Source: an uncultured Pelagibacteraceae bacterium (lineage in GTDB: Bacteria > Pseudomonadota > Alphaproteobacteria > Pelagibacterales > Pelagibacteraceae). Taken from it: a DNA stretch of 64,000 nt. This document shows positions 10,456 to 63,043 of the stretch, piece after piece; positions within the stretch are counted from its first letter, which is position 1, and each line of letters starts with the position of its first letter. The stretch lies in the NCBI GenBank assembly GCA_902596515.1, contig CACJUF010000002.1, forward strand, positions 20,100-84,099, read 5' to 3'. The notes beneath the pieces were generated by a model. That model was not told the origin of the DNA. It saw only the letters and a program-made list of their open reading frames with translations, and did no database searches. Position numbers and translations under genes: made by a program.

Positions 10456-11527
10456 AACATTAGATAGATACTTTATTAGTTTATTTTTTAAAAAATTAAT
10501 GATGCTCAGTATTATTTTTTTTTCATTATCATTTACTTTAACAATTTTTGAGGAAATTACATTTTTAAGTGAAACAACATCATCTTTTTATTTACCATTC
10601 ATGTTGGCAATTTTTGATGCGCCTACCACTCTACTTGAAATCTTTCCTTTTATAATTTTAATTACTGCTCAACTTTTTTTTATTGATTTAATAAAAAAAA
10701 AAGAAAATGAACTTATCAAAATAAATAATTTAAATAATCTTTATTTGATAAAAATTTTAGCATCATGCTCCTTTTTTTTTGGTATCATTATAATTACAGT
10801 TTATTATCCAATTTCCTCTAAATTAAAATTTATCTATTCTGATATTAAAAATGTCTATTCAGATGATGGTAAATACCTTAAGCATTTAAATGATAATGGT
10901 ATTTGGATCAAAGATGAATTTAGTAATGAAATTTATATAATAAATGGTGCTACGAAAAAAGATCCCTTTCTTGAAGATGTTTTTATATCAAAATTTAATG
11001 CTGATTTTGACTTAATAGAAAATATTTTTGCCAAAAATATCGATATCACCAATAATAAATGGTTAATAAAAAATCCAATTATATTTAAGAGTAACCGTCA
11101 AATAAGCTTAGATAAAACCATTGTATTAAATACTCACTTTAATATTGATAAAATTAACAGTGCCTTTCAGAATCTTAATTCATTTAATCTATTTGAATTA
11201 ATTGATATAAAAAATGAAAATAAGTTATTGGGTTATTCTTCACAAGATATTGATTTACATTTTTTAAAAATAATTTCACTTCCAATTTATTTTACTATAT
11301 TGGTGATAATTTCGTCATTAATTATGTTAAATATTAAAAGAAATAAACCGTATATATTTCATGTTTTATTGGGTATCTCATTATCTGTGATTATTTATTA
11401 TATAAATAATATCTTTAATATATTTGGACTAACAAATAAAATACCAATCTACTTATCTATATTTTTTCCTATGATTTTTTTAGGTATAATCTCAACAATT
11501 GGTTTAATAAGAATTAATGAGAAATAG
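10448..11527 (+). CDS. lptG: LPS export permease LptG
   Basis: Second YjgP/Q paralog (GIWIKD, ENELI); overlaps lptF. Confidence 0.8.
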   Translation: MVKTLDRYFISLFFKKLMMLSIIFFSLSFTLTIFEEITFLSETTSSFYLPFMLAIFDAPTTLLEIFPFIILITAQLFFIDLIKKKENELIKINNLNNLYLIKILASCSFFFGIIIITVYYPISSKLKFIYSDIKNVYSDDGKYLKHLNDNGIWIKDEFSNEIYIINGATKKDPFLEDVFISKFNADFDLIENIFAKNIDITNNKWLIKNPIIFKSNRQISLDKTIVLNTHFNIDKINSAFQNLNSFNLFELIDIKNENKLLGYSSQDIDLHFLKIISLPIYFTILVIISSLIMLNIKRNKPYIFHVLLGISLSVIIYYINNIFNIFGLTNKIPIYLSIFFPMIFLGIISTIGLIRINEK

Positions 11528-42660: not shown

Positions 42661-43236
42661 ATGAAGTATTTTTTCATAATTTTCTTTTTTTTAATTAATA
42701 TAAATTTTTCATATTCTGCTCAAAAAGATAAAGCATATTTCGCTGGGGGATGTTTTTGGTGTGTTGAGGAGTCATTTGAAAAATTAAAAGGTGTGGAAGA
42801 GGTAATTTCTGGTTATTCTGGAGGTATTACTGAAAACCCTACTTACAAAGAAGTTACATATGGAAATACTGGTCACTTTGAAGTTGTAGAAATAATCTAT
42901 GATAAAAAAGTTATTTCATTTGAGCAATTACTAGAAAATTTTTGGGTTAATATTGATCCATTTGATGCTTACGGTCAATTTTGTGACAAAGGATATAGTT
43001 ATAGATCAGTTGCATTTTATCAAAATGAAGAAGAAAAAAAATTAATAGAAAGAGACATAAAAGATTTACAAAATAAATTTAACAAAAAAGTTGTTACATA
43101 CATTAGGAATTTTGAAAAATTTTATAAGGCAGAGGAATACCATCAAGATTTTTATAAGATTAAATTAGAAAGATATCTTAGATATAAAAAAGCGTGTGGA
43201 AGAGAGGAATTGTTAAAAAGAATCTGGAGTCAATAA
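42661..43236 (+). CDS. msrA: Peptide methionine sulfoxide reductase A, exported
   Basis: AYFAGGCFWC, SGYSGG, GH.EVVEI.YD, AEEYHQDFY; N-terminal signal peptide. Confidence 0.95.
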   Translation: MKYFFIIFFFLININFSYSAQKDKAYFAGGCFWCVEESFEKLKGVEEVISGYSGGITENPTYKEVTYGNTGHFEVVEIIYDKKVISFEQLLENFWVNIDPFDAYGQFCDKGYSYRSVAFYQNEEEKKLIERDIKDLQNKFNKKVVTYIRNFEKFYKAEEYHQDFYKIKLERYLRYKKACGREELLKRIWSQ

Positions 43237-44696
43237 ACTTTATGAAGAATAATATGAATTGGAATTTCGATAACTCTTATTCAAGACTGTCTGATGCATT
43301 TAAAGAACATATTGAACCTATTGCTGTAAAAAATCCTGAATTAGTTTTAATGAATGAGGATTTAGTTACAGAATTAAACTTAGACTTTTCCAAAATTAAT
43401 AAAAATGAATTAGCAGCTTTATTCACTGGAAATATTCTTCCGAAAGGAAGTAATTCTATTGCTCAAGCTTATGCTGGTCACCAATTTGGACATTTCACAA
43501 TGTTAGGAGATGGAAGAGCAGTTTTAATAGGTGAGCATTTAACGAAAAATAATAAGAGATACGATATTCAATTTAAAGGATCAGGTAAAACTGCATTTTC
43601 AAGAAATGGTGACGGCAGAGCTGCACTGGGTCCAATGTTGAGAGAATATATAATAAGTGAAGCAATGCATCACCTAAATATTCCATCAACAAGAAGTTTA
43701 GCGGTAGCTAAAACAGGTGAGGAAATAATGCGAGAGACTCCATTGCAAGGTGCTATCTTAACGAGAGTGGCATCAAGTCATATTAGAGTTGGAACTTTTC
43801 AATATGTTGCAGCACGTAATAAAAAAGATGAGTTAGAAATTTTACTAAATTATGTAATTAAAAGACATTATCCAGAACTAATAAATTCAAAAAATAAAGC
43901 TTTAGACCTTTTGAATGTACTTATAGATAAACAAATTGATCTTGTAGTTAATTGGATGCGCGTTGGTTTTATTCATGGTGTTATGAATACTGATAATATG
44001 ACAATTTCAGGTGAGACAATCGACTATGGTCCGTGTGCATTTATGGATACCTATGACCCAAAAACTGTTTTTAGCTCGATTGATAAGGTGGGAAGGTATG
44101 CTTATTGTAATCAACCAGCTATTACAAAATGGAATCTTTCAAGATTTGCTGAATGTTTAATACCTTTAATTGATGAAAATGAAGATAAGGCGATTAAAAG
44201 TGCAACAGAGTTGATTGAAACTTTCGGCAAAAAATATGAGGAAAAATGGTTGAAGATGATGAGAAAAAAACTTGGATTATTAGGTGAAGATAACAAAGAT
44301 AAATTTTTGATTGTTGATTTGCTCACTTGGATGCATCAAAACAAAGTAGATTATACAAATACTTTTTGTCATCTAATGAATATTAAAATTGAGAAAGATG
44401 GAAATTATAAAGATAGTAATTTTCAACAGTGGAAAAAGAGGTGGCAAGAAAGATTAGAAATTAACGAAAACTCTCCTGAAAAAAATATGAAATTAATGAG
44501 AAGTGTAAATCCTTTAGTTATCCCAAGAAATCACAAAATTGAAGAAGCTCTTGAAGCTGCAGAAAAAGATAACTTCAAATCAGTCAATCAACTGAATGAA
44601 ATTTTAAAGAAACCATATTCTCAACAAAAAAATATTCTTAAATATCAAATTTCATCAAATTTAAATGAAAATTATCAAACTTTTTGTGGGACTTAA
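43194..44696 (+). CDS. selO: SelO/YdiU protein adenylyltransferase; likelier start 43242 or 43254
   Basis: AYAGHQFG....LGDGRA, QFKGSG.T.FSR.GDGRA, HGVMNTDN, IDYGP, terminal TFCGT. Confidence 0.95.
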   Translation: MWKRGIVKKNLESINFMKNNMNWNFDNSYSRLSDAFKEHIEPIAVKNPELVLMNEDLVTELNLDFSKINKNELAALFTGNILPKGSNSIAQAYAGHQFGHFTMLGDGRAVLIGEHLTKNNKRYDIQFKGSGKTAFSRNGDGRAALGPMLREYIISEAMHHLNIPSTRSLAVAKTGEEIMRETPLQGAILTRVASSHIRVGTFQYVAARNKKDELEILLNYVIKRHYPELINSKNKALDLLNVLIDKQIDLVVNWMRVGFIHGVMNTDNMTISGETIDYGPCAFMDTYDPKTVFSSIDKVGRYAYCNQPAITKWNLSRFAECLIPLIDENEDKAIKSATELIETFGKKYEEKWLKMMRKKLGLLGEDNKDKFLIVDLLTWMHQNKVDYTNTFCHLMNIKIEKDGNYKDSNFQQWKKRWQERLEINENSPEKNMKLMRSVNPLVIPRNHKIEEALEAAEKDNFKSVNQLNEILKKPYSQQKNILKYQISSNLNENYQTFCGT

Positions 44697-49203: not shown

Positions 49204-49905
49204 TTAATTAGAAAATTTTTTCCAATTTTCGACTGGAGGGACTAAATGTTCAAGTGTTGATGAATCTTTTGCTAAAAATACTATATCTGCTGAAATTGAT
49301 ATCCTTTCAGAATTAGACTTTCCTTGTTCTGTGCCATGAATTGTTTTTGAGGGAAATATCAACAGATCATCTTCTTTAGTATCAAATACAACTTTACTTG
49401 AATTTAAAATATCTCGCTTTTTAAAAATATTTTCTTTTGCTAATGATCTTGAGTCGAATAATTGAGGAATAAATTCATTATGCTTAGAAGTATCAAAAAA
49501 CATGATCTTAGCATCGTCTTTTTGTTTCTTTAAATAAAATGCAATAGAAAGATGCGACTGATCATGTGAATGATTATCAATATGTTCAGTTTTTTTTGAA
49601 ATTGTTGCCCACGATCTCTGAAAATAAAGATCAAGCTTTGTATGGTTCACTGATAAACTTTCTAAATATTCTAAAATACAATTGTTAATTTGAATAAACA
49701 AATTTTTAAATTTTGGATTATTGTGCAAATATTCAAATCCTTGCGTATCTCCTGTCCAAGCTTTCGTCGCAGATTTATAATCTAAATTTTTACTTTTTTT
49801 TTCCATTAATCGGACTTCCTCAATCATTTCATTTTTTTCATTTTCTGAAAGTGAAAGTGTCGACTTATAAACTGTTAGTGGAAAAAAATTAAAAATTTTT
49901 TGCAT
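49204..49905 (-). CDS. Putative 2OG-Fe(II) oxygenase (TIGR02466-like)
   Basis: FPLTVY N-terminus, RSWAT, HSHDQSHLS..FYL, IFPS...HG, RISIS. Confidence 0.75.
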   Translation of the reverse strand: MQKIFNFFPLTVYKSTLSLSENEKNEMIEEVRLMEKKSKNLDYKSATKAWTGDTQGFEYLHNNPKFKNLFIQINNCILEYLESLSVNHTKLDLYFQRSWATISKKTEHIDNHSHDQSHLSIAFYLKKQKDDAKIMFFDTSKHNEFIPQLFDSRSLAKENIFKKRDILNSSKVVFDTKEDDLLIFPSKTIHGTEQGKSNSERISISADIVFLAKDSSTLEHLVPPVENWKKFSN

Positions 49906-49916
49906 TTAAAAGTAAA

Positions 49917-51020
49917 TTATAAAACGTAAGGTTCCGGTCTTGCTTTTGCACCTAATACTCTCTCTACTGCCATATTTGAAATATCAATCGATTGATAAGA
50001 GCCTGTTGTAATTAGTTCTGTTAAAGCTCTTCCAATTCCTGGTGCTTGCATTAATCCTCTTCCAGTAAATCCAGTTGCTAAGTATACGTTTTCAAATTTA
50101 GGATGTTTTCCTACAACGGCATTATTATCTAATCTATTACAATCATAATAACCTGCCCAACCACCCGTTAACTTTAATTCTTCAAACGCAGGAATTCTTT
50201 TAGCTAAAGCAGGCCAAACCAATTCTTCAAAATCATTCCAGGCTGGTTCAAGATCTGTAGCATCAAAAACTGATTTTGGTGAACCAGCTAAATACTCTTT
50301 ACCCTCAGGTCTCCAATAAACTCCTGTTGTTAAATCTCCAGTTAATGGCATTTCAGGAATATGTTTTGGACACTTAATTCTAAAGACTGTGTGTTTTTGA
50401 GGCTCAACTGGAATATCTTCCAATAATTCTTTTGTCCAACATCCAGCGGCAGAAACTATCGTTTTAGCATTTATTTCCGATAAAGACTTAACTTCACCTT
50501 TAACAAATTCTGCACCTTGCTCTATCGCTTTACTTTTTAATGCTGTGTGAAAAAGGAAAGGATCAATCCATCCTTCACTTTTATTGTCAGTAAATGTAGC
50601 CGTTTCTATTCCTTCTTTGTTTATGTAAGGAAAAAACTTGTCTAACTCGGAACCTTTGATGTTCTTTGTTCCAGCGTCACATGCTTTATGATTTTCAAGA
50701 GCCCTATATTGTTCGTCTGCATGCTCTGGGCCAAACATTAATAGATATCCATTTGGTACCATGCTTGCAGTAGGATTAGGATTTTTTTTTGTTTTCAGCA
50801 ACTCTGGTATTTGAAAAATAAATTCTCTTGCAAATTTACCTAATAAAATATTTTCCGTTTGAAAAAATTGTCTTCTAAAACCGCCAAGAGATAACGGAAA
50901 GGAAGCTGATTTATAAGTTGGGTCTCTTTCAATTACTTTAACTTTTCTTCCCTCTTTAGATAGGAAATAAGCTGTTGCTGCACCAATTATTCCCCCACCA
51001 ACTATTACAACATCATCCAT
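49917..51020 (-). CDS. FAD-dependent oxidoreductase, DAO family, FOXRED1-like
   Basis: VVIVGGGIIG, IERDPTY..AS..LS.GGFR.QF...EN, WAGYYD.N..D.N..VG.HP, GF.G.GLMQAPGIG. Confidence 0.85.
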   Translation of the reverse strand: MDDVVIVGGGIIGAATAYFLSKEGRKVKVIERDPTYKSASFPLSLGGFRRQFFQTENILLGKFAREFIFQIPELLKTKKNPNPTASMVPNGYLLMFGPEHADEQYRALENHKACDAGTKNIKGSELDKFFPYINKEGIETATFTDNKSEGWIDPFLFHTALKSKAIEQGAEFVKGEVKSLSEINAKTIVSAAGCWTKELLEDIPVEPQKHTVFRIKCPKHIPEMPLTGDLTTGVYWRPEGKEYLAGSPKSVFDATDLEPAWNDFEELVWPALAKRIPAFEELKLTGGWAGYYDCNRLDNNAVVGKHPKFENVYLATGFTGRGLMQAPGIGRALTELITTGSYQSIDISNMAVERVLGAKARPEPYVL

Positions 51021-51503
51021 TTAATTTAGCACCATTAAGTTATAGTTTAGAAATAAAGCATAGAAACACCAAAGTAAATATGGAATCATTAAGTAATAAC
51101 TTACAAAATTGACACGTTTAAATCTAATAATCAAAATTATTATCAAAATTATCAAAATCACAAGAACAACTAATGCAAAAAATATTTTATGTAGTCCAAA
51201 AAAAACAATACTCCAAGTTGCATTAAAAACTATATGTATAAAATAAATATAAATTGTATTTGCATCTCTTTTTTTACTATGCCAAAAAAACCAAATAGCT
51301 AATGTCATCATTATGTAAAGTGTTGTCCAAACAGGTGCAAATATCCAATCTGGTGGATTATAATTCGATTTCACAAGACTAGAATACCAGGGCTCTTTGA
51401 AGCTAATTGAGACTAAACCTCCAGTAAATGATGCAGAAAAAGTGACAATTAAAAAAAGAATTAATGAATAAAATTTATTTTTTAGCATATTAGTATTATA
51501 CAT
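51021..51503 (-). CDS. tspO: TspO/MBR sensory protein; likelier start ATG at 51488
   Basis: WY..L.KS.YNPP.W.F.PVWT.LY, N..WS.VFF, PYL.W..YA..LN. Confidence 0.93.
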   Translation of the reverse strand: MYNTNMLKNKFYSLILFLIVTFSASFTGGLVSISFKEPWYSSLVKSNYNPPDWIFAPVWTTLYIMMTLAIWFFWHSKKRDANTIYIYFIHIVFNATWSIVFFGLHKIFFALVVLVILIILIIILIIRFKRVNFVSYYLMIPYLLWCFYALFLNYNLMVLN

Positions 51504-51512
51504 CTTTATAAT

Positions 51513-52274
51513 ATGAATAAAAAAACTATTTGGATCACAGGTGGTAGCACAGGAATTGGTAAAGCTTTAGCAATAAAATTTGCCAAAGAAGGTTGGAATG
51601 TTGCAATATCTGCTAGACGTGAAAATTTACTAAAAGAAACTTGTGGAGAACATGAAAATATTAGTTCTTTTCCATTAGACGTAACCGATAAGAATAAATG
51701 TAAAGAAGTTTTTCAAAATATATTAGATACTTTTCAGAATGTAGATATTTGTTTTTTCTCAACTGGTACATGGGATCCCAAGAAAGAAAAAGATATTGAT
51801 GTTGAGCAAATTGAAAATGTATTTAAAGTAAATTTTTTTGGAACATTAAATAGTATAAAAGCTGCAGAGAAATATTTTAAAGATAGAAAAAGTGGGACAA
51901 TAACTATAGTCTCCTCTATTGCTGGTTACCGAGGATTACCTAATTCAACTGGATATGGGCCATCAAAATCAGCTTTAAATAATTTAGCTGAAAGTTTATA
52001 TTTTGATTTTGGTAGATCGAACGTTCGGGTGTGTCTTGTTTCACCAGGTTTTATTAAAACACCAATGACTGATAAAAATGATTTTAAAATGCCTTTCTTA
52101 AAAACTTCTGAATATGCTGCAGAAAAAATTTATGATGGTTTAGTAAACAAAAATTCTTTTGAAATTCATTTTCCTAAGTCTTTGACAACTATATTGAAAA
52201 TATTGAGTTTCTTACCAAACAAAATTTATTTTGGCTTAATTGGGAAACTTACAAAATATCAAAAAAAAAATTAA
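51513..52274 (+). CDS. Short-chain dehydrogenase/reductase
   Basis: WITGGSTGIG, SSIAGYRGLP, YGPSK, PGFIKTPMT..N.F.MPF. Confidence 0.92.
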   Translation: MNKKTIWITGGSTGIGKALAIKFAKEGWNVAISARRENLLKETCGEHENISSFPLDVTDKNKCKEVFQNILDTFQNVDICFFSTGTWDPKKEKDIDVEQIENVFKVNFFGTLNSIKAAEKYFKDRKSGTITIVSSIAGYRGLPNSTGYGPSKSALNNLAESLYFDFGRSNVRVCLVSPGFIKTPMTDKNDFKMPFLKTSEYAAEKIYDGLVNKNSFEIHFPKSLTTILKILSFLPNKIYFGLIGKLTKYQKKN

Positions 52275-52819
52275 TCTTTTACAAAAACAACAGTTAATTC
52301 AGCGACTTTGAAACCAAACTTAGTCATAGTAGCCCTGTTAATTGCTACACGTTCATCTTGTTTAAAAATCCAATCATCAAAAGTAATTTTCATTTCTTTA
52401 CCTTTGACTGGGACTAACAAAACATATTCAAATTTAAAAGCTGGACCATACGAATATCCTTTAGCTTTACCAACAACATCTCCTGCCGTTCCCTCATAAT
52501 TATTTTCATCAATTTTAGTGATCTGCCATTGTCTGGTTTGAATTTCCCCATCATCCCAGTTAAATTTTTCGTCGAGTATTAGTTGTTTACCATCCCATTT
52601 TCCGTTTAAATCTGCAGAAAATTGTCTTGTGACTTTTCCAGATCTATTTTGAAGCACACCCCAAGCTTTTACATTGCCGGACAAATAATTTTCAATAATC
52701 AATCTAGGTTCTTTATTTTTAAAATCTTCGGGTTTCATAGCGCTATTTTTTGAACAGTTTGTAATTAAGAAAAGAAAAATTATCAATAAAATTGATTTGC
52801 TATTTTTAAGTTGAATCAT
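52271..52819 (-). CDS. DUF3833-family lipoprotein
   Basis: Lipobox-like ITNC; YLSG..KAWG, LDE.F...DG....R.W, FDDW.F. Confidence 0.85.
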   Translation of the reverse strand: MIQLKNSKSILLIIFLFLITNCSKNSAMKPEDFKNKEPRLIIENYLSGNVKAWGVLQNRSGKVTRQFSADLNGKWDGKQLILDEKFNWDDGEIQTRQWQITKIDENNYEGTAGDVVGKAKGYSYGPAFKFEYVLLVPVKGKEMKITFDDWIFKQDERVAINRATMTKFGFKVAELTVVFVKD

Positions 52820-52835
52820 TCGTTTCCTTTAAAGA

Positions 52836-54014
52836 TCATTTATTTTGAAGTGAAAATTGAATTAAATCTATATTTTTCGATTTAAAACCTGCCTCACAAT
52901 AAGAAAGGTAAAATTCCCACATTCTTTTAAAAGTTAAATCAAATCCTTGTTTCTTAATTAAATCCCACTTCTTATTAAATTCATTTCTCCATATTGCTAA
53001 TGTATCAGAATAATGATCTGCATAGGAGTCATATGACTTGATAGCTAGACCATTTTCCGAAACATATTTATTAATAATATTTTTACTTGGTAAAAAACCT
53101 CCAGGAAAAATATATTTTTGGATAAAGTCTGTCTTGTTTTTATATCGGTCAAACATATTATCATCTATTGTAATAGCCTGAATAGCAGCTCTTCCATCAT
53201 CTGATAGATGATCTTTAATAGTTTTAAAATAACTCTCTAGGTAATTTTGTCCAACAGCTTCTATCATTTCTATTGAAGCTATTGAATTATATTTATTTTT
53301 TAAATCTCTATAATCTTTAATTTCAATATTTACTTTTTCGTTTAAGCCACATTCGTGAATTCTTTTTTTTGCATATTCAAATTGTTTTTTAGATAAAGTA
53401 ATGCAATCTAATTTTACATCATATTTTTTTCCTAAATATTCAGCAAAACCACCCCAACCACATCCAATCTCTAAAATTTTGTCGCCATCATTTGGTTTTA
53501 TTAAATCGATTAATTTTTGATATTTATTATTTTGTGCATTAGACAAATCTTTATTTCTCTCATCAAATATTGCACTTGAATATGTTAAGGTTTTATCAAG
53601 CCATAGTGCAAAAAACTCATTGCCTAAGTCGTAATGTTTTGAAATATTATCTTTACTTCGACCTCTTGTGTTTTTAATAAATATATTTTTTACGTAATTG
53701 ATTATTGGAAAGTCTAATAGACCTGAAAATTTGTAAATTATTTTAATATTTCTTGCAGTGATTTCTATCAAATTTGAAAGATTATCAGTTTCAAATTCAT
53801 CCCTCATATAACATTCTGCAAAACCAACACTTCCTCCTCTTATTAAGTTGAAAGTAAAATTTGGTTTTTTTATCTTTAAAACTGATTTTAAAGGACTATT
53901 AGGGTTTCCAAATTTTAATAATTCACCATTATATTTTGTGATCTCTAAATACCCGTGCTCAATATCTCTTAAAATTTTAAAGACGATTTGATCTGAAAAG
54001 TTATATAAGCCCAT
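52836..54014 (-). CDS. cfa: Cyclopropane fatty acid synthase-family methyltransferase (UfaM-like)
   Basis: HYDLGNEFF..WLD..LTYSSA, LEIGCGWGG, YIFPGG, RMWEFYL.YCEAGF. Confidence 0.93.
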   Translation of the reverse strand: MGLYNFSDQIVFKILRDIEHGYLEITKYNGELLKFGNPNSPLKSVLKIKKPNFTFNLIRGGSVGFAECYMRDEFETDNLSNLIEITARNIKIIYKFSGLLDFPIINYVKNIFIKNTRGRSKDNISKHYDLGNEFFALWLDKTLTYSSAIFDERNKDLSNAQNNKYQKLIDLIKPNDGDKILEIGCGWGGFAEYLGKKYDVKLDCITLSKKQFEYAKKRIHECGLNEKVNIEIKDYRDLKNKYNSIASIEMIEAVGQNYLESYFKTIKDHLSDDGRAAIQAITIDDNMFDRYKNKTDFIQKYIFPGGFLPSKNIINKYVSENGLAIKSYDSYADHYSDTLAIWRNEFNKKWDLIKKQGFDLTFKRMWEFYLSYCEAGFKSKNIDLIQFSLQNK

Positions 54015-54775
54015 TAATTCTCAAAAGTAATATTATTTTTAATTTTAAGTTTTTTTTTTACAAATTTTATTCCTTTCAGCCATAATTTAAAGGCTTCAAA
54101 ATGTATCGCCGATATAATTTTAAATGTCATTAAAGGATGTTTTATGTATGATTTAAGTAGTTCTATGGTTGTAAAATCTACCCTTTTTCCTTCTTGTGAT
54201 GCAAATAAGATTTTTTCATTTTGCTGATATTGATCAATTATGACTGAAATCTTTTCAGAGGGTTTTAAGATTCTAAAAAAATAATTACAATTCATTTCAA
54301 TAAACGGAGACACATGAAATTTTTTGAAACAGTTGTGTTGTAACATGTTATTTTTCTCTACTCTAAAAATATAAGTATGTTGTTCTCCAAAAGTATTTTT
54401 TACCTCATATAATATTGAAATTAAATTTTCATTATGATCATAAACAAAGAAAACACTAAGAGGATTAAACACATAACCAAAAATTCTTGGATAGCACAAA
54501 AGCTTTATTCTTATATCTTTTGAAAAGATATTATTTTCCTCTAAATTTTTTTTCACCCATTCAGTCAAAGATGAGCCATCTCTTTGACCATGATCTTTGT
54601 CAAAAAAACTAATTAGATTAAACCGATTATATGAGAAAAAACTTATATTTTTATTCAGATTATTTAGATCAGATAAATCAATTAATAATGAAAATACACT
54701 GTACTTAAAATAATGTTTTTTTGGTTTAAATCTTTTGTGTATTACCGTTCCATTGTAAATTGAGCTAGTCATCAA
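54014..54775 (-). CDS. DUF1365-family protein (UfaO-like)
   Basis: V.HKR..PK.H.F.Y, PRIFGYVFNPLS, EVKNTFGE.H.Y, KKFHVSPF. Confidence 0.92.
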   Translation of the reverse strand: MMTSSIYNGTVIHKRFKPKKHYFKYSVFSLLIDLSDLNNLNKNISFFSYNRFNLISFFDKDHGQRDGSSLTEWVKKNLEENNIFSKDIRIKLLCYPRIFGYVFNPLSVFFVYDHNENLISILYEVKNTFGEQHTYIFRVEKNNMLQHNCFKKFHVSPFIEMNCNYFFRILKPSEKISVIIDQYQQNEKILFASQEGKRVDFTTIELLKSYIKHPLMTFKIISAIHFEAFKLWLKGIKFVKKKLKIKNNITFEN

Positions 54776-56006
54776 GGTTTTTTAGCATTTCAATTGATGA
54801 TTTTATTCCATCTTCATGAAAACCGTAACCAAAATAACTACCACAAAAAAGAATATTTCTTTTATTTTGCAAATTTTTAAGCTTACTTTGATAATCTAAA
54901 GCAGATTGATCAAAATATGGGTGAGTGAATTTAACTCTTTTCAAAATTTTTGTTTCATCAATATTGAGGTATGGATTTAGTGTAAGAAATATATTTTTCT
55001 CACATTCTAAATTTTGAAGTAAATTTAACCAATAAGTGATTGAATTTTTTTCAATTTCATTTTTCTTCATAGAAGAGTTCCAAGCACACCAGGCATTCTT
55101 GTTTTTTGGCATAACTGTCTCATCTGTGTGTATGTAAGCCAAATTTTCTTTATAACTGAAATTTGACAAAACTTCTTTCTCTTGATCAGTTGGATTTTCA
55201 ATCATTGATAATGCTTCGTCCGCATGTGTTGCAATAATTACTTTGTCGTAATCAAAAAATTCATTTTTTCCACCATAATACAAATCAATACCATTTGATT
55301 TACTAATGATTTTATTGACTTTATAATTCTTAAAATATTCTCCACTGATTTTTGATAGAATAGTTTTTACATATGCCCTACTTCTATTTGATACTGTGTA
55401 CCATTGTGGTCTATTTCTAAGTTTAAATAATCCATGATTTTGAAAAAATTTTAAAAAGAATTTTAAAGGCATCTTATTTGCAGCATATGGTGGCATCGAC
55501 CAGATTGCTGACACCATGGGTATTAAATGATAATTGATAAATTCTTTTGAAAGATTGTTTTTAATCAAATAATCACCCAATGTGATTTTCTCATTTAAAT
55601 TATCAAGTTTATCAGATTTTTTATAAAATTTTATAATGTCAAAAAACATTTTTAGAAATTTAATATTAAATAAATTTACCTTATTGGAAAAAATTCCACT
55701 TAATCCTTTTCCACAGTATTCAAAGTTTGAGTCTTGTACTGATACAGAAAAAGACATGTTGCTTTTTTCAATTTCAATTTTATTTTCATTAAAAAAATTA
55801 ATTAAATTTGGGTAAGTTTCAAAGTTAAACACTATAAAGCCTATATCCACTGAAACTTTTTTAGTCCCAATCATAAGGTCAATTGTATGCGAATGACCAC
55901 CAAAGTGATCTTCTTTTTCAAATAGATCTACGTGATTCTTTTTTGAAAGATAATAAGCAGCACTTAATCCTGAAATGCCTGAACCAACTACAGCAATTTT
56001 CATCAA
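54765..56006 (-). CDS. FAD-dependent oxidoreductase COG2907 (UfaD-like fatty acyl desaturase)
   Basis: IAVVGSGISGL, FGGHSHT, VDIGFIVFN..TYPN, CGSYFGYGFHEDG. Confidence 0.9.
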   Translation of the reverse strand: MMKIAVVGSGISGLSAAYYLSKKNHVDLFEKEDHFGGHSHTIDLMIGTKKVSVDIGFIVFNFETYPNLINFFNENKIEIEKSNMSFSVSVQDSNFEYCGKGLSGIFSNKVNLFNIKFLKMFFDIIKFYKKSDKLDNLNEKITLGDYLIKNNLSKEFINYHLIPMVSAIWSMPPYAANKMPLKFFLKFFQNHGLFKLRNRPQWYTVSNRSRAYVKTILSKISGEYFKNYKVNKIISKSNGIDLYYGGKNEFFDYDKVIIATHADEALSMIENPTDQEKEVLSNFSYKENLAYIHTDETVMPKNKNAWCAWNSSMKKNEIEKNSITYWLNLLQNLECEKNIFLTLNPYLNIDETKILKRVKFTHPYFDQSALDYQSKLKNLQNKRNILFCGSYFGYGFHEDGIKSSIEMLKNLDD

Positions 56007-56009
56007 TAA

Positions 56010-58880
56010 TTATGCTGCATCTTCTTTAAATTCATCCATGCTAGGACATGTACAGAAAATATTTTTATCACCATAGACATTGTCTACTCTTGCAACTGGT
56101 GGCCAAAATTTATTTACTTTTAAAAATTTTGCTGGATAAGCGGCCTCTTCTCTAGAATACTTGTGTGTCCAATTATCTGAAGCTAACTCAGTATCAGTAT
56201 GAGGAGCGTTTTTAATTGGATTATCAACTTTATCAAATTTACCAGTTTTAATTAGATCAATTTCTTGTTTAATTTTAATTAAGGTGTCACAAAACCTATC
56301 TAGCTCTGACAAGGTCTCACTTTCTGTAGGTTCAATCATCATTGTTCCAGCCACAGGCCAAGACATTGTTGGTGCATGGAAACCAAAATCAATTAATCTT
56401 TTTGCGATATCTTCCTCAGTGATACCCGTTTCTGATTTGATTGACCTAATATCAATTATACATTCGTGAGCAACATTACCATTTGAACCTTTGTATAAGA
56501 TTGGATAGTAATCTTTCAGTCTTTCAGCAATATAATTTGCATTTAGTATCGCAACTTTAGAAGCTAGTTTTAATCCCTCTGATCCCATCATTTTTATATA
56601 CATCCAAGAAATTGACAAAATACTTGAGCTTCCCCATGGAGCAGCAGACACAGCTCCAATTCCCGTTGCTGGACCACAATCTTTCACAACTGGATGATTA
56701 GGCAAATAAACTTGTAGATGTTTTTTACATGCAATAGGTCCCATACCTGGTCCACCCCCACCATGAGGGATACAAAATGTTTTATGTAAATTTATATGAC
56801 AAACATCCGGACCAAAATTTCCAGGTTTAGCGATACCAACTAATGCATTCAAGTTTGCCCCGTCCATATAGACTTGCCCACCATGTTTATGAATTAGTTC
56901 ACATATATCCATAATTTTTTCTTCAAATACTCCATGAGTAGATGGATATGTGACCATCAAGGCTCCTAAATTTTCTGAATGAAGCTCTGCTTTTTTCTTT
57001 AAATCATAAAAATCAACATTACCTTCTTTATCACAATTAACTACAACCACTTTCATTCCAACCATTTGTGCACTAGCAGGATTGGTTCCGTGTGCAGAGC
57101 TTGGTATTAAACATATGTTTCTATTTTTTTCACCTCTATCTAAATGATATTTTCTAATTACCATTAGTCCTGCATATTCGCCTTGGGCACCTGCATTTGG
57201 TTGAAGTGAAACTCCCGAAAAACCAGTAATTGATCTTAACCAGTTTTTTAAATCTGTGAATAATGTTCTATATCCCTCCATCTGCTCAATAGGTACAAAT
57301 GGATGGGGCTCAGCTAATTCTCTCCAGGAGATAGGTATCATTTCTGCAGTGGCATTTAATTTCATAGTGCAAGAGCCTAATGCTATCATGGTTCTGTTAA
57401 GAGCTATATCCTTATCCTCTAACTTTTTAAGGTATCTGAGCATTTCTGTCTCAGAACGATATGAGTTAAAAACAGGATGTTCTAAATATTTAGAGGTTCT
57501 CAGTAAACTTTTTGGTAAATTGGGTAAACTTACTGTTGGATCTTCTTTTTTTATGGATTCTGCTGCATTAAAAATTTTTAATAGTTGATTTACTCTATAT
57601 ACATTTTTCTTCTCATCAAAAGAAACAGCAAGCATCTCAGAGTTTACTTTTCGAATATTAACTTTTTGATTTAAAGCATTTTTATAAATTTGATCAGTCT
57701 TTTCTTTGGTAATAATTGTAACAGTATCAAAAAAGTAATCAGAATATATTTCATATCCAGATTGTTTTATTTTATCAGCGAAATTTTTTGCTAATTGAGA
57801 AACTCTTTCAGAAATTTTCTTAATTCCATCTGGACCATGATAAATAGCATAGGCTGCTGATACTATAGCTAACAATGCTTGAGCGGTACAAATATTACTT
57901 GTAGCTTTGTCTCTTCTGATATGCTGCTCTCTAGTCTGTAGTGACAATCTATAAGCCTTGTTTCCATGCCTATCTACTGAAACGCCAACTATTCTACCTG
58001 GCATAGATCTTTTGTATTCATCTTTTGTTGCAAAAAATGCAGCATGTGGTCCTCCATAACCCATTGGAATGCCAAATCTTTGTGAACTACCAACTGCAAT
58101 ATCAGCGCCAAGTTCTCTCGGTGTTTTAAGCTTTGCAAGCGCAAGAAGATCGCAAGCTAAAATAGCTTTACCATTTTTTTTATGAATTTTACTTATTGCC
58201 TCGCTTGGATCTTTAATATCTCCCAAGGTTCCAGGATACTGTAATATTCCACAAACTATATCCTCTTTTAATTGTTCTAAAACTTTATCTTCATTTCCAA
58301 CAAGAACTTTGAGACCCATAGGCTCTGCTCTAGTTCTTATAACCTCAACAGTTTGGGGGTGACAATTTTCTGAGACAAAAACCAAATTACTATCAGTTTT
58401 ATCAAGTCTATAACTTAAACCCATAGCTTCTGCTGCCGCTGTACCTTCATCGAGTAAAGATGCATTTGCAATATCCATTCCTGTAAAATCAACAATCATT
58501 TGTTGAAAGTTTAAAAGCATCTCCAGTCTTCCTTGAGCCACTTCTGGTTGATAAGGCGTATAAGATGTGTACCAGCCTGGATTTTCCAATATATTTCTTA
58601 AAATTACGTAAGGTGTGTATGTACCGTAATAGCCCATGCCAATAAAATTTGAGTAAATTTCATTTTTTTTAGAAATTGCTTTTAATTTTCTTAATGCTTC
58701 GTACTCTGAATTAGACTCGCCAATATTAAGTTCACCCTTAAACTGTATTTTTTCTGGAACAGTATTATTAATTAAATCATCTAATGATTTATAATTTAAT
58801 TTTTTTAACATTTTAAATTGATCATCTTCAGATGGACCAATATGTCTTTTTATAAAATCTTTTTCAGAATTATGTAACAT
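56010..58880 (-). CDS. gcvP: Glycine dehydrogenase (decarboxylating), P protein
   Basis: FIKRHIGP, YTPYQPEVAQGRLE, REQHIRRDKATSNICT, LGSCTMKLN, HINLHKTF, GFHAPT. Confidence 0.99.
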   Translation of the reverse strand: MLHNSEKDFIKRHIGPSEDDQFKMLKKLNYKSLDDLINNTVPEKIQFKGELNIGESNSEYEALRKLKAISKKNEIYSNFIGMGYYGTYTPYVILRNILENPGWYTSYTPYQPEVAQGRLEMLLNFQQMIVDFTGMDIANASLLDEGTAAAEAMGLSYRLDKTDSNLVFVSENCHPQTVEVIRTRAEPMGLKVLVGNEDKVLEQLKEDIVCGILQYPGTLGDIKDPSEAISKIHKKNGKAILACDLLALAKLKTPRELGADIAVGSSQRFGIPMGYGGPHAAFFATKDEYKRSMPGRIVGVSVDRHGNKAYRLSLQTREQHIRRDKATSNICTAQALLAIVSAAYAIYHGPDGIKKISERVSQLAKNFADKIKQSGYEIYSDYFFDTVTIITKEKTDQIYKNALNQKVNIRKVNSEMLAVSFDEKKNVYRVNQLLKIFNAAESIKKEDPTVSLPNLPKSLLRTSKYLEHPVFNSYRSETEMLRYLKKLEDKDIALNRTMIALGSCTMKLNATAEMIPISWRELAEPHPFVPIEQMEGYRTLFTDLKNWLRSITGFSGVSLQPNAGAQGEYAGLMVIRKYHLDRGEKNRNICLIPSSAHGTNPASAQMVGMKVVVVNCDKEGNVDFYDLKKKAELHSENLGALMVTYPSTHGVFEEKIMDICELIHKHGGQVYMDGANLNALVGIAKPGNFGPDVCHINLHKTFCIPHGGGGPGMGPIACKKHLQVYLPNHPVVKDCGPATGIGAVSAAPWGSSSILSISWMYIKMMGSEGLKLASKVAILNANYIAERLKDYYPILYKGSNGNVAHECIIDIRSIKSETGITEEDIAKRLIDFGFHAPTMSWPVAGTMMIEPTESETLSELDRFCDTLIKIKQEIDLIKTGKFDKVDNPIKNAPHTDTELASDNWTHKYSREEAAYPAKFLKVNKFWPPVARVDNVYGDKNIFCTCPSMDEFKEDAA

Positions 58881-59260
58881 TAGGTATTATTCTCCTTTGC
58901 AAATTTATCATAGTCATCTTTGTTCATTAAAGAGTCCATTTCAGATTTATCTTTTATTTTTAATTTGAAGAACCAAGCAGAATTTTCAGGGTCTTGATTT
59001 ATTTTGGATGGATCATCTACAATTTCTTGATTTGTATCTACAACCTCACCACTCACTGGAGTATAAACATCACTAGCAGCTTTAGTGGACTCTACAACTC
59101 CTGCTGTACCATCTTTTTCAACATTAGAACCTTTTTCCGGTAGCTCTGCAAACACAATATCTCCTAGCATCTCTGTTGCATGCTTTGTAATGCCGATTGT
59201 TGCAACATCACCCTCTAATTTTATCCATTCATGCTCTTTAGAATATTTCACTTCACTCAT
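58880..59260 (-). CDS. gcvH: Glycine cleavage H protein
   Basis: [27 protein letters not shown] (lipoyl Lys). Confidence 0.98.
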
Positions 59261-60363
59261 TGATTTACTCCTTTTACGTAACTTTTTTTATAAAATGGTA
59301 AACTGCAAATGTTTGCTGCATATTTTTTACCTCTAACCTCTAAAAATACTTTAGTATTTTTTTTTGAAAATTCATTTTCTACATAGCCCATAGCTACAGG
59401 TCCATTTACACTTGGCCCAAATGTACCACTAGTAATTTCTCCAATATGGACATTTGACTGGTTGAATATTTTTGTTTTTTCTCTGGCAATTATTCTTCCC
59501 TCAGGTTTAATCCCAACTCTTATTTTGGTGACACCATCATTTAATTGTTTAATAATTATGTCCGAACCAATAAAGTCACCTTTGGAAATTCTTTCTTTTG
59601 AAATTGCCCATTTCAAATTCGCCTCAACTGGAGTTTTATCTTTATCAAGGTCATGACCATACAAGCATAAGCCAGCTTCTAATCTTAGAGTATCTCTTGC
59701 TCCTAAGCCTGCCAATTTAGATCCTTTATTAATTAATTCTCTGGTCAATTTTTCTGCAAAGTTATTTGGAATTGATATTTCAAAACCATCTTCACCTGTA
59801 TACCCAGATCGAGTAATGTATACTTTCTGATTATCAAATAAGAACCAGTTTCCAGACATAAAATTCAAATCTTTTACCCCATCAACAACTTCATTTAAGA
59901 TTTGTGATGATTTAGGTCCCTGAATTGCTATTAAAGATCTATTTTCATCCAAAAACATTTTGTACTTTTCTTTTAAAAGTTCCTTTAAAATTTTAAAATC
60001 ATTGTCTTTACAAGCTGCATTAAGAATTATTAAAAAACCTTCATCAATTTTTGTGATGATTAAATCATCTTGTATCCCAGCATCTTTATCCATTAAAAAG
60101 CTGTACTTAGAGTGATTTAATTTCAAATTTTTCAAATCTAATGGAAAAATTTTTTCTAAATCTTTAATTAATTCTTCACCACCATAAATAAATAATTGAC
60201 CCATATGTGAAACATCAAAAATACCAGAGTGATTTCTTGTGAATTTATGCTCCTCTACAATGCCTTCAGAATATTGGATTGGCATATGATAACCTGCAAA
60301 TTCAACAAACTTTGCGTTACAATCTTGATGTAATTGGTAAAGCGATGTTTTTTTTGTTTCCAT
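59257..60363 (-). CDS. gcvT: Glycine cleavage T protein
   Basis: [43 protein letters not shown]. Confidence 0.98.
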
Positions 60364-60376
60364 ATTAACTCATTAT

Positions 60377-60522
60377 ACCCATCTGTATATTTGCCTGAGA
60401 GTTTTGCTCCTTCGGCGAGAATTAAATCTCTTTCCAGAGTTAATATGTTACGGTCCTTTTTGCCTGAGAGATTCCTGGGCGGTTGCTCCTTCGGCGCTAC
60501 GATAATCTGTAGTCTCTCCCGT
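60377..60522 (-). promoter_or_regulatory. Tandem glycine riboswitch upstream of gcvT
   Basis: Aptamer 1 (60522-60450) ACGGGAGAG...GCCGAAGGAGCAA...CTCTCAGGCAAAAAGGACCGT; aptamer 2 (60440-60377) ACTCTGGAAAGAG...GCCGAAGGAGCAAAACTCTCAGGCAAATATACAGATGGGT. Confidence 0.97.
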
Positions 60523-60528
60523 GAAACA

Positions 60529-60557
60529 ATAGTCCTATAAGTGCCATAAAATGTCAA
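60529..60557 (-). promoter_or_regulatory. Candidate sigma70 promoter for the riboswitch-gcv transcript
   Basis: Perfect TTGACA (60557-60552), 17 nt, GACTAT (60534-60529), 6 nt, then the first base of aptamer 1. Confidence 0.55.
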
Positions 60558-61432
60558 TTGGAAACGATAGCCTTGGGCTTTTTTAAAAGCGTATAAAACT
60601 GTAGTAATACAGCAAAAAGTATTATTGCTCCTCCTATCAATCCATACAATGAGGGTATTTCGTTTACAAAAAGAAAAGCCCAGATAGGACCAAGAACGGA
60701 TTCGGATAGCATGATTATTCCAACCATCGCAGAAGGAGTTGTTCTTGCACCAATTGTTATAAATATAAAACCGAAACCTATTTGAAAAAATCCTGCTAAA
60801 AAACCTAAAAAAATATCATGAGGTGAAATCATTATTGTAGGTGAAAGTGATAAACCAATAAGACATGAACTTATACCTGCAACGAACTGTGCTGGAACCA
60901 TATCAACTGATGGAAATTTTCTAACGATCATTATTAAAACTGCGAAAGTTATTGGCATTGTGAAAGCTGCTAAATTTCCAGATAATTCTCCTGGAGATAA
61001 TGAATTTCCAACCATCAACAGCACTCCTGACATTGCTAAAATAATTGAAATTAACGTAATTAAATTAATTTTTTCTTTTAAGAAAAAAAAACCAAATATA
61101 GCTAAAAATAAGATTTGAAGTGATATGATGAAATTAGTATTAGCAACAGTGGTGTTATACATGGCAAAAACATAACCACAGAAACCAATAGATAATATTA
61201 GTCCACCAATAAAACCTGGTAATCCAGAGTCATAAAACGATTTTAAAACTTTGCTTTTGTAAGTGATAATCAAAAAAGTTAAAACCGTAAGAGAGAAAAA
61301 TAAGGATCTCCAAAATAATATCTGCCATAAAGTTGCACCTTCAAAAGATTTAACTATTAGTCCACCAAAACTTAAACTAAGAGCACCAAAAAATATCAGT
61401 AATGGACCGGGTAAACTTTTTAAAATATTCAT
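60554..61432 (-). CDS. DMT/EamA-family transporter
   Basis: Ten TM; SFGGLIVK, FWRSLF, PSAMVGIIML.E.VLGPIWA. Confidence 0.88.
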   Translation of the reverse strand: MNILKSLPGPLLIFFGALSLSFGGLIVKSFEGATLWQILFWRSLFFSLTVLTFLIITYKSKVLKSFYDSGLPGFIGGLILSIGFCGYVFAMYNTTVANTNFIISLQILFLAIFGFFFLKEKINLITLISIILAMSGVLLMVGNSLSPGELSGNLAAFTMPITFAVLIMIVRKFPSVDMVPAQFVAGISSCLIGLSLSPTIMISPHDIFLGFLAGFFQIGFGFIFITIGARTTPSAMVGIIMLSESVLGPIWAFLFVNEIPSLYGLIGGAIILFAVLLQFYTLLKKPKAIVSN

Positions 61433-62376
61433 TAAATTTGTGAAATTAAATTTTGAGTCTCTAAGTCATACAATTTAAAAAGAGTTTCTGCACTATTTAA
61501 ATCGACCTCCTGAAACTTCAGACTTGAACCTGGAGTTAATTGAACTAATTTGTCATAATCAGCACTTACAACGACGCCGATTTTAGGATATCCACCTATA
61601 GTTCCATGATCTGAAAGCATGATTATTGGATTACCATCAGCTGGCACTTGTATCGCCCCCTTAATTAAGCCCTCAGATCTAATATTAGTATCAATTATAT
61701 TTTCTATTTTTTTTCCCTCTAATCTCATTCCCATACGATCAGATAATTTAGAAACTTTAAATTCATTTTTAAAAAAAATTTTCTTACCCTCTTCAGAAAA
61801 ATAATTGAAATTTGTACCTTTAATTACTCTAATATTTTCTATCTTTGTGTTAACATAATTTAATTTTCTATTCACAAAGTTATTATTAATTTCTTTAACA
61901 TTAATTTTTTGGTTAACAGATAACTTTTCTCCATTATTAGATCCTATCTTTGCTTTAGTATTAGTTGAACAACTAGACCATTGAAATTTTAAATCAAAAG
62001 TACCACTGATTGCTAGATATCCATACACAGATTTATTAGTTGATATAATATCCAATTCATCATCATTTTCTAAAATAAATGATTGATAACATTCTCCATT
62101 AATTAGATTATCACCTTTTTTAATTTTGAAACTGACATTACCAGTAATAGCAATATTAATTTTATCTCCATGATATTTCAAATGAGGGCCTTGATAAGCA
62201 AATTCTATTACTGGATGGTTATGATTATTACCAGTAAGTTTATTAGCTAATAAATAATTTCTATTATCCATAGCTCCACTGAATGGAACTCCTATATGAT
62301 AGAGATTGTTCCTTCCAAGATCTTGGAAAGTTGAGTTAATACCTGCCCTTATAATTTCAAAATAATTTTTATTCAT
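61432..62376 (-). CDS. pxpC: 5-oxoprolinase subunit C (AHS2/carboxyltransferase family)
   Basis: TFQDLGR......GVP.SGAMD, SDRMG.RL.G, IQVPADG.PII...D..T.GGYPK. Confidence 0.88.
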   Translation of the reverse strand: MNKNYFEIIRAGINSTFQDLGRNNLYHIGVPFSGAMDNRNYLLANKLTGNNHNHPVIEFAYQGPHLKYHGDKINIAITGNVSFKIKKGDNLINGECYQSFILENDDELDIISTNKSVYGYLAISGTFDLKFQWSSCSTNTKAKIGSNNGEKLSVNQKINVKEINNNFVNRKLNYVNTKIENIRVIKGTNFNYFSEEGKKIFFKNEFKVSKLSDRMGMRLEGKKIENIIDTNIRSEGLIKGAIQVPADGNPIIMLSDHGTIGGYPKIGVVVSADYDKLVQLTPGSSLKFQEVDLNSAETLFKLYDLETQNLISQI

Positions 62377-63043
62377 GATAATTTTGATATTTTTCTTTAC
62401 TAATTCTTTTGAATGTAACTAAATCGCCTGGATTAATTAAATTGGGTTCTTTTTCTTTAGTACTATCAAAAATATTTAATGGAGTATTTCCAATGATATT
62501 CCATCCCCCAGGGCTTTCAAAAGTGTAGATATTGGCAAATTGCTCAGTCAAACCAATTGAACCTTTTGGAACCTTAATCCTAGGAGTATCAAGACGTTTT
62601 GCTCTAAGATTTTCATCTAAATCTCCAAGGAAAGGCATTCCTGCAATAAATCCTGTCATATAACAAAAAAATTCTTTTTCAAAAAAACTCTCATATATTT
62701 TTTCTTCTTTCATCTTAAGTTTTTCTTCTAATCTTTTTATATCCAAAGAAAATTCTTTTTCACAACAGACAGGAATTTCAAATTTTTTGTGTTGTATGCT
62801 TTCACCTTTAATAATTTCTAAATTATCAATTACTTTTTTAAGTTTATTAAAATTAATTTTTTTAAGGTCAAAAGAAATAATTAATTTATTGTAAGATGGG
62901 GTAATATTATTCACTCCTGCAATATCTTTTTTTTGAATAGTTTTAAAATATTTGATTACTTGTGTGTTAATGTCTTTATTTACCTCTTTACCAAAATCAC
63001 AATACAAAGCTGCGTCACCAAGATTTGATATATTTTTTATCAT
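62369..63043 (-). CDS. pxpB: 5-oxoprolinase subunit B (AHS1 family)
   Basis: LGDAAL, PSYN, GFIAG.PFLG, PR.KVP.GS.G, SPGGWNIIG.T. Confidence 0.9.
   Translation of the reverse strand: MIKNISNLGDAALYCDFGKEVNKDINTQVIKYFKTIQKKDIAGVNNITPSYNKLIISFDLKKINFNKLKKVIDNLEIIKGESIQHKKFEIPVCCEKEFSLDIKRLEEKLKMKEEKIYESFFEKEFFCYMTGFIAGMPFLGDLDENLRAKRLDTPRIKVPKGSIGLTEQFANIYTFESPGGWNIIGNTPLNIFDSTKEKEPNLINPGDLVTFKRISKEKYQNYHE

Follow-up and report, generated by a model that had tools for sequence, protein, structure and literature searches.

Three enzymes are known to build a methylated furan fatty acid in Rhodobacter sphaeroides. UfaM (RSP2144; UniProt Q3J4I7) converts cis-vaccenate chains to 11Me-12t-18:1 (Lemke et al. 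2020, PMC7380195), UfaD (RSP1091; Q3IYV7) turns this product into 11Me-10t,12t-18:2 and UfaO (RSP1090; Q3IYV8), a DUF1365 protein, carries out the O2-dependent formation of 9M5-FuFA, whilst RSP1089, RSP1088 and RSP1087 are not needed to form the product (PMC7380195). In Rhodopseudomonas palustris CGA009 the contiguous genes RPA2571-RPA2570-RPA2569 correspond to ufaD-ufaO-ufaM and are sufficient (PMC7380195). In Halomonas sp. YLGW01, ufaM stands in a row with ufaD and ufaO, and its expression in E. coli yielded 11-methyloctadec-12-enoate, and a separate, true cfa raises the cyclopropane acids cy17:0 and cy19:0 (PMC12089945). Here we describe a cluster of homologues in a 64,000 nt stretch of DNA (hereafter the window) from an uncultured Pelagibacteraceae bacterium (assembly GCA_902596515.1, contig CACJUF010000002.1, positions 20,100 to 84,099). 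Judged by its sequence, the locus holds a genuine, complete ufaD-ufaO-ufaM module together with the accessories usual for it, and belongs to Pelagibacter (SAR11 subclade Ia). We think it likely that this block is the Pelagibacter version of the known monomethyl furan fatty acid pathway, for which products, chain length and physiological role are predicted. The genes are as follows.

54765-56003, minus strand: ufaD homologue, a flavin adenine dinucleotide (FAD)-dependent flavoprotein of 412 amino acids (aa); Pfam NAD_binding_8 and Amino_oxidase
54014-54775, minus strand: ufaO homologue, 253 aa; DUF1365 (PF07103, E 3e-77)
52836-54014, minus strand: UfaM-type S-adenosylmethionine (SAM)-dependent methylase, 392 aa; CMAS/Cfa (PF02353, E 7e-84)
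52271-52819, minus strand: DUF3833 protein, RSP1088 homologue, 182 aa; PF12915, E 6e-61
51513-52274, plus strand: short-chain dehydrogenase/reductase (SDR), RSP1087 homologue, convergent, 253 aa; adh_short, E 3e-44

Pfam matches confirmed the run of COG2907 flavoprotein, DUF1365 protein, Cfa-family methylase and DUF3833 protein with a convergent SDR that had been described in an initial annotation of this DNA. The ufaD reading frame opens at a TTG at 56006 (413 aa), and the ATG at 56003, which gives MKIAVVGSG, is the likelier start. Within the cluster the distances between genes are -11 nt (ufaD/ufaO), -1 nt (ufaO/methylase) and +16 nt (methylase/DUF3833), and the SDR and DUF3833 genes overlap by 4 nt at their 3′ ends.

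Reference proteins were taken from relatives of R. sphaeroides 2.4.1 (Cereibacter johrii, C. azotoformans and Rhodobacter sp. NSM), which were reached through the R. sphaeroides TspO sequence; the TspO of C. johrii shares 99% identity with it. UfaD aligned with Cereibacter-group UfaD over its full length at 33-34% identity (E 3e-92) and was the single match in both directions. UfaO (30% identity, E 1e-45) and the in-cluster methylase (37% identity, 295 bits, 1 gap in 380 columns) were each reciprocal best hits of their Cereibacter-group counterparts. Forward searches into the Cereibacter-group genomes returned one match each for DUF1365, CMAS and UfaD, and the DUF1365 gene is the sole copy in the Pelagibacter genome. 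The accessory proteins were searched in the Cereibacter-to-own-genome direction only; the best matches to the Cereibacter DUF3833 protein and operon SDR were those of the cluster (120 versus 46 bits for the SDR), and the operon MFS transporter found no match in this genome. The furan pathway had been proposed in the initial annotation together with reciprocal best hits to UfaM, UfaD and UfaO as a check, and at the level of gene assignment both are borne out, the hits being to C. johrii and Rhodobacter sp. NSM proteins and the methylase falling within the UfaM clade described below.

The operon of the Cereibacter relatives encodes UfaD (430 aa), UfaO (249 aa), an MFS_2 transporter (401 aa) in the slot of RSP1089, a DUF3833 protein (186 aa) and an SDR (245 aa), with lengths equal to those of PMC7380195. 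The window shares four of the five RSP1091-1087 families in the same order, UfaO, the DUF3833 protein and the SDR measuring 253, 182 and 253 aa here. The third slot, in contrast, is occupied by the methylase. RSP1089 might readily be taken for a Cfa-like gene, but the slot holds the MFS_2 transporter (locus L044, 6370-7575, in Rhodobacter sp. NSM).

Two strong CMAS-family genes are carried by the genome, the in-cluster copy, with PF02353 spanning residues 119-387, and a stand-alone copy on contig 12. The latter scored 204 bits against Cereibacter-group UfaM, versus 295 for the in-cluster methylase. The in-cluster methylase lies below every NCBIfam Cfa equivalog cut-off (262 versus 600 bits for NF053839 and 253 versus 400 for NF008686), and the stand-alone gene scores higher (514 bits on the Brucella-type NF053839 and 313 on NF008686), yet is also under the cut-offs. 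Homologues of the stand-alone copy in 121 alphaproteobacterial genomes were bimodal in score, with full-length matches at 300-437 bits and a second group at 110-215 bits which mostly adjoin ufaO. A tree of 94 sequences (IQ-TREE quick search, with support from the Shimodaira-Hasegawa-like approximate likelihood ratio test, SH-aLRT) resolved two clades. One clade (SH-aLRT 99) united the window methylase with three Cereibacter-group UfaM proteins and all methylases adjoining ufaO, in which the SAR11 methylases form a long branch of their own. A second clade (97) held the stand-alone alphaproteobacterial Cfa-like genes, including the contig 12 copy, with the cyclopropane fatty acid synthases (CFAS) of E. 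coli, Aquifex and Lactobacillus outside both. By sequence, therefore, the in-cluster methylase is of UfaM type and not a canonical cyclopropane synthase, whereas the stand-alone gene is of the canonical Cfa type.

The two clades also differ at the bicarbonate site. At positions C139/E239/H266/I268/Y317 (E. coli numbering), the window methylase (in which the Gln is residue 279) and Cereibacter UfaM read S/E/Q/I/Y, whereas C/E/H/I/Y is found in the solved CFAS and in the stand-alone clade. The His and Cys of this site are retained by 27/27 cyclopropane-type sequences; in the UfaM clade, position 266 is Gln in 67/67 and position 139 is Ser or Ala in 60/67. The changes at H266 and C139 would fit an altered deprotonation that leads to a methyl olefin and not to a closed ring, and may decide the product. 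Further residues of the UfaM-type signature are G236 to E, H240 to A and D173 to E (window 52836-54014; also locus L045, 5868-7079, and locus L006, 8396-9583). Many of the nearest 150 cluster representatives are single-chain DUF1365-CMAS fusions of about 650-775 aa (P0131, P0147, P0150, P0231, P0217 and P0270, for example), and such natural fusions tie the UfaM-type methylase functionally to UfaO. One protein of 703 aa (P0124) carries two CMAS domains instead. A search for homologues of the methylase returned solely ocean variants of 97-100% identity, a sign of abundance though not of diversity.

The remaining proteins of the cluster were inspected individually. The nearest solved structure to UfaD is the amine oxidase LkcE. 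UfaO scores 259.7 bits on DUF1365 against a cut-off of 25, and its alignment with 34 homologues contains 21 invariant columns, all of which the window protein retains by definition of the alignment. The invariant polar residues H13, R15, D61, N127, T128, Y135, K151, S156, Y165 and H225 are candidates for the active site. Its AlphaFold2 (AF2) model is confident (predicted local distance difference test, pLDDT, 91.8; predicted template modelling score, pTM, 0.91); a Foldseek search of this model against the PDB gave no match at E <= 0.001, with a weak resemblance to nitrobindin/FABP-like barrels. A signal peptide precedes Cys22 of the DUF3833 protein, with a non-canonical lipobox (LITN|C) where relatives have the canonical LITS|C, and the AF2 model of this protein (pLDDT 90) shows a ten-stranded calycin-like barrel behind the lipoprotein-type signal. 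Foldseek matches of this barrel were BFA1, the OssO/OlmO spirocyclases, CpeS, nitrobindin and lipocalins, therefore the model suggests that a hydrophobic ligand may be bound. OssO and OlmO are polyketide spirocyclases and form C-O rings. In most lineages of the genus the DUF3833 protein is the best conserved of the cluster (83-97% identity, versus 63-87% for UfaO), falling to about 64% in one sublineage. This strong conservation contrasts with the dispensability of its homologue in R. sphaeroides.

We then examined how widely the arrangement is distributed. DUF1365 is present in 148 of 301 sampled Alphaproteobacteria, and the order ufaD-ufaO-methylase is found in 28 of the 30 best alphaproteobacterial loci and in 18/20 extended loci. 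Within these 20 extended loci, ChrR lies within 5 kb in 11, a photolyase directly upstream in 8, an SDR (mostly convergent) in 12 and DUF3833 in 5. In the genus to which the window belongs the cluster is near universal, being intact in 158/172 genomes that are at least 90% complete. The order gcvT-gcvH-gcvP-ufaD-ufaO-ufaM-DUF3833-SDR-tspO-DAO is kept in all 20 closed genus genomes, three of which were checked for the stand-alone Cfa type and all carry it. In one variant genome of the genus (locus L021, 11535-13031, minus strand), a photolyase-related DPRP-family protein of 498 aa sits just past the SDR, at the place of tspO in the window. The cluster is patchy in a sister family of the same order. 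In two genera of that family (locus L019, 4700-6000, and locus L020, about 10712-11857), ufaD-ufaO-ufaM lies behind a divergent aminomethyltransferase of the GcvT family, 24-25% identical to gcvT, and DUF3833 and SDR genes were not detected at these two loci. Here, then, a GcvT-family gene neighbours the trio a second time and independently.

By analogy with the characterised enzymes, the pathway would act upon fatty acyl chains already in membrane phospholipids. The UfaM-type methylase, with SAM, would convert a cis-monounsaturated chain to a methyl-branched trans-olefin, the known case being cis-vaccenate to 11Me-12t-18:1. UfaD would then add a second, conjugated double bond to give 11Me-10t,12t-18:2, and UfaO would insert one oxygen atom from O2 and close the furan ring to give 9M5-FuFA. 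The DUF3833 barrel protein and the SDR would be conserved accessories of the pathway, and the separate canonical Cfa would make cyclopropane acids. Since this second, stand-alone canonical Cfa is present in the genome, the cell most likely makes both furan-type and cyclopropane lipids.

A single fatty acid methyl ester (FAME) profile of SAR11 was found for comparison, from strain HTCC7211 cultured in constant dim light with glycine at 50 uM (PMC6528590). It is dominated by 16:1 cis9 (45.8%), 16:0 (17.7%) and cy17:0 (11.9%), with minor entries for "18:1 cis11 11methyl" (0.8%), 19:1 cis12 (0.7%) and "16:0 iso 10methyl" (0.5%); cy19:0 was undetected and the rows given total about 86% (PMC6528590). 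The cy17:0 fits the product of the stand-alone Cfa and the 11-methyl-18:1 fits that of UfaM, if the library name "18:1 cis11 11methyl" denotes 11Me-12t-18:1, as we infer. The initial annotation had suggested that this bacterium makes furan fatty acids rather than cyclopropane lipids. That contrast does not hold, given the second canonical-type Cfa in the genome and the cy17:0 made by HTCC7211 (PMC6528590).

Several observations weigh against a furan pathway of the known kind in this organism. No furan acid is listed in the HTCC7211 profile, the sole published SAR11 one found, in which the known UfaM substrate 18:1 cis11 is undetected and its methylated product amounts to less than 1% (PMC6528590). 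Identities to the characterised enzymes are low, at 30-37%, and the references are proteins of C. johrii and Rhodobacter sp. NSM, not of R. sphaeroides 2.4.1 itself. The H266Q/C139S signature is a pattern seen in this analysis and not an established determinant of the product. Every gene of the cluster is covered by ocean metatranscriptome contigs, which speaks for the pathway, but the Logan contigs from RNA libraries may include DNA and are without strand information.

Two other readings of the same genes were weighed against these data. The enzymes could act as in R. sphaeroides on another chain, mainly on 16:1 cis9 to give a C17 9-methyl-hexadecenoate and then a 7M5-type furan, or could halt at the methyl-branched or diene stage with furans in trace or condition-dependent amounts. 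The dominance of 16:1 cis9 and the lack of detectable 18:1 cis11 in HTCC7211 speak for this (PMC6528590), as do the low level of 11-methyl-18:1, the minor odd entries for 19:1 cis12 and "16:0 iso 10methyl", the rows that add up to only about 86%, and the separate long branch of the SAR11 methylases within the UfaM clade. However, neither a C17 furan nor 9-methyl-16:1 is reported in that profile. UfaO and UfaD are conserved across the genus as well as the methylase, which argues that the later steps of the pathway are in use, and chain-length specificity is not readable from sequence. We regard this variant as unlikely. It is far less probable again that the in-cluster methylase is a second cyclopropane synthase, with the flavoprotein and the DUF1365 protein modifying cyclopropane or other lipids and no furan pathway at all. 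The public annotation of the methylase as a cyclopropane-fatty-acyl-phospholipid synthase would agree with this, as would the abundance of cy17:0 in HTCC7211 and the cyclic acids still contained in E. coli carrying the Halomonas ufaM (PMC12089945). Against it stand the position of the methylase within the UfaM clade, its scores beneath all NCBIfam Cfa equivalog cut-offs and its missing bicarbonate-site His and Cys, which all 27 cyclopropane-type sequences keep, whilst the cy17:0 is explained by the canonical Cfa elsewhere in the genome.

The physiological role of a monomethyl furan pathway in Pelagibacter would be the protection of membranes from singlet oxygen and radicals in sunlit water. 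The genes around the cluster bear upon this and upon its control, and are listed here.

51021-51503, minus strand: tspO, tryptophan-rich sensory protein, next gene downstream; PF03073, E 1e-38
56010-60363, minus strand: gcvT-gcvH-gcvP, glycine cleavage, directly upstream and co-directional; TIGR00461 gcvP 1441 bits, GCV_T matches
60441-60531, minus strand: glycine riboswitch aptamer, upstream of gcvT; Rfam RF00504, 64.6 bits versus a gathering score of 32
42661-43236: msrA
43194-44696: selO

A photo-oxidative theme had been read from the nearness of tspO, msrA and selO. The nearness holds for tspO, which is adjacent to the cluster and is counted here as conserved context. It does not hold for msrA and selO, which are non-contiguous, lying 8-9 kb away beyond an unrelated sugar/glycosyltransferase block, and with ChrR and sigmaE absent from the genome the argument is weak. 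After tspO and on the same strand (49204-51020) follow a DAO-family FAD oxidoreductase, 87-98% identical across the genus, and a TIGR02466-family 2-oxoglutarate-Fe(II) oxygenase.

A tblastn search with the Cereibacter proteins found no match to RpoE or ChrR in this genome, and PF12973 was likewise without a match, relatives having just short stand-alone cupins. The singlet-oxygen regulator pair of ChrR and sigmaE, an extracytoplasmic function (ECF) sigma factor, which flanks such clusters in many Alphaproteobacteria, is thus absent here. What precedes ufaD is the glycine cleavage operon, with distances of -4 nt for gcvT/gcvH, -1 nt for gcvH/gcvP and +6 nt for gcvP/ufaD. The whole run from gcvT to the DUF3833 gene extends over about 8 kb with a largest gap of 16 nt. 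Contigs from RNA libraries span the gcvP stop and the ufaD start in X1 (55808-56042), X3 (55930-56099), X4 (55989-56042) and X5 (55948-56099). Variants of sister-strain contigs in runs X1 and X7 also span this junction, and the junction-spanning runs come from at least three studies. Because such contigs may be DNA and are unstranded, co-transcription of gcvP and ufaD is supported by them but not proven. Taken together, gcvTHP and the ufa cluster are probably one transcription unit, and the glycine riboswitch is a possible upstream control element of the whole run. The ufa genes would be read through from gcvTHP, or else from a promoter inside gcvP.

The adjacency is not constant within the genus. 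Four of 11 other same-genus loci have no gcvTHP here, the cluster following directly after pxpBC-EamA, the genes which in the window lie upstream of the riboswitch. When the variant locus L021 (G004:C2, 3780-6269) is set against the window (60554-63043), the whole block of riboswitch and gcvTHP proves to be missing from between EamA and ufaD, the stop of EamA overlapping the start of ufaD. Such a difference has the look of a presence/absence polymorphism of gcvTHP at this position, therefore the adjacency to gcvP may reflect genome compaction and not designed control. It is quite possible, though on balance we lean away from it, that compaction is all there is to the arrangement and that a constitutive or light-responsive promoter of its own, lying within the 3′ end of gcvP, drives the cluster, with no riboswitch control. 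Besides the four loci devoid of gcvTHP, sigma-70-like hexamers within gcvP (56086-56058), a CATAAT 6 nt before the ufaD ATG and a fall in contig depth from gcvP to ufaD would be in keeping with such a promoter. However, a scan for promoters and terminators gave 60 promoter-like matches versus 68.8 expected in shuffled sequence, which is no excess. The depth drop is confounded, since gcvP is more conserved and recruits contigs of other strains, and for this reason was not used as evidence. Moreover, the ufaD ATG comes just 6 nt after the gcvP stop, and the RNA-library contigs cross this junction in several studies.

A bolder scenario, which we consider decidedly doubtful, would combine the change of regulation with the change of substrate. 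Having shed the singlet-oxygen sigma switch, the ufa genes would now form the end of a gcvTHP transcript controlled by the glycine riboswitch, and the enzymes would act on 16:1 cis9 to give C17 methyl-branched and furan acids. If so, SAM-dependent lipid methylation would follow the supply of glycine and one-carbon units. Furthermore, the C17 products would be ones that standard FAME libraries do not name, and SAR11 would supply the surface ocean with furan-type lipids on a large scale that has been overlooked.

SAR11 bacteria rank with the most abundant marine organisms, and in their main genus the cluster is near-core. If the proposed pathway operates, methyl-branched and furan fatty acids, which are scavengers of singlet oxygen and radicals, would be present in a considerable part of the bacterial membranes of the surface ocean. 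This bears on how a catalase-poor, rhodopsin-bearing and streamlined cell survives sunlight, and on the origin of furan fatty acids in marine food webs. It also bears on marine lipidomes and how their "19:1" and "17:1" species are interpreted, since a methyl-olefin chain and a cyclopropane chain are identical in mass.

Lastly, we compared the locus with the described systems gene by gene. In the Cereibacter relatives the single CMAS gene is UfaM, which is unlinked and lies behind a photolyase, whereas here the methylase is part of the cluster. Their SDR is co-directional with the operon, in contrast to the convergent one of Pelagibacter, and rpoE-chrR stands divergent beside the Cereibacter-group operon whilst neither gene is present in this genome. 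R. palustris has the same order of ufaD-ufaO-methylase, the window methylase taking the slot of RPA2569, a likeness drawn from gene order and clade. R. palustris also has FufM (RPA0924), for a dimethyl furan acid; here two strong CMAS-family matches were found, no search having been aimed at FufM. Halomonas sp. YLGW01, a gammaproteobacterium unlike the SAR11 host, has two CMAS paralogues with the same split into UfaM and Cfa as is proposed for Pelagibacter, a likeness drawn from the published account (PMC12089945). The E. coli Cfa (PDB 6BQC) and the Brucella-type Cfa share their fold and SAM-binding family (PF02353) with the in-cluster methylase. The latter differs from E. coli Cfa in Ser139, Gln266, Glu236 and Ala240 and in its separate clade, whereas the contig 12 copy retains all five site residues. 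The kind of pathway is already known and its operon type is very common; what the Pelagibacter locus adds is an abundant host and the loss of the canonical regulator.

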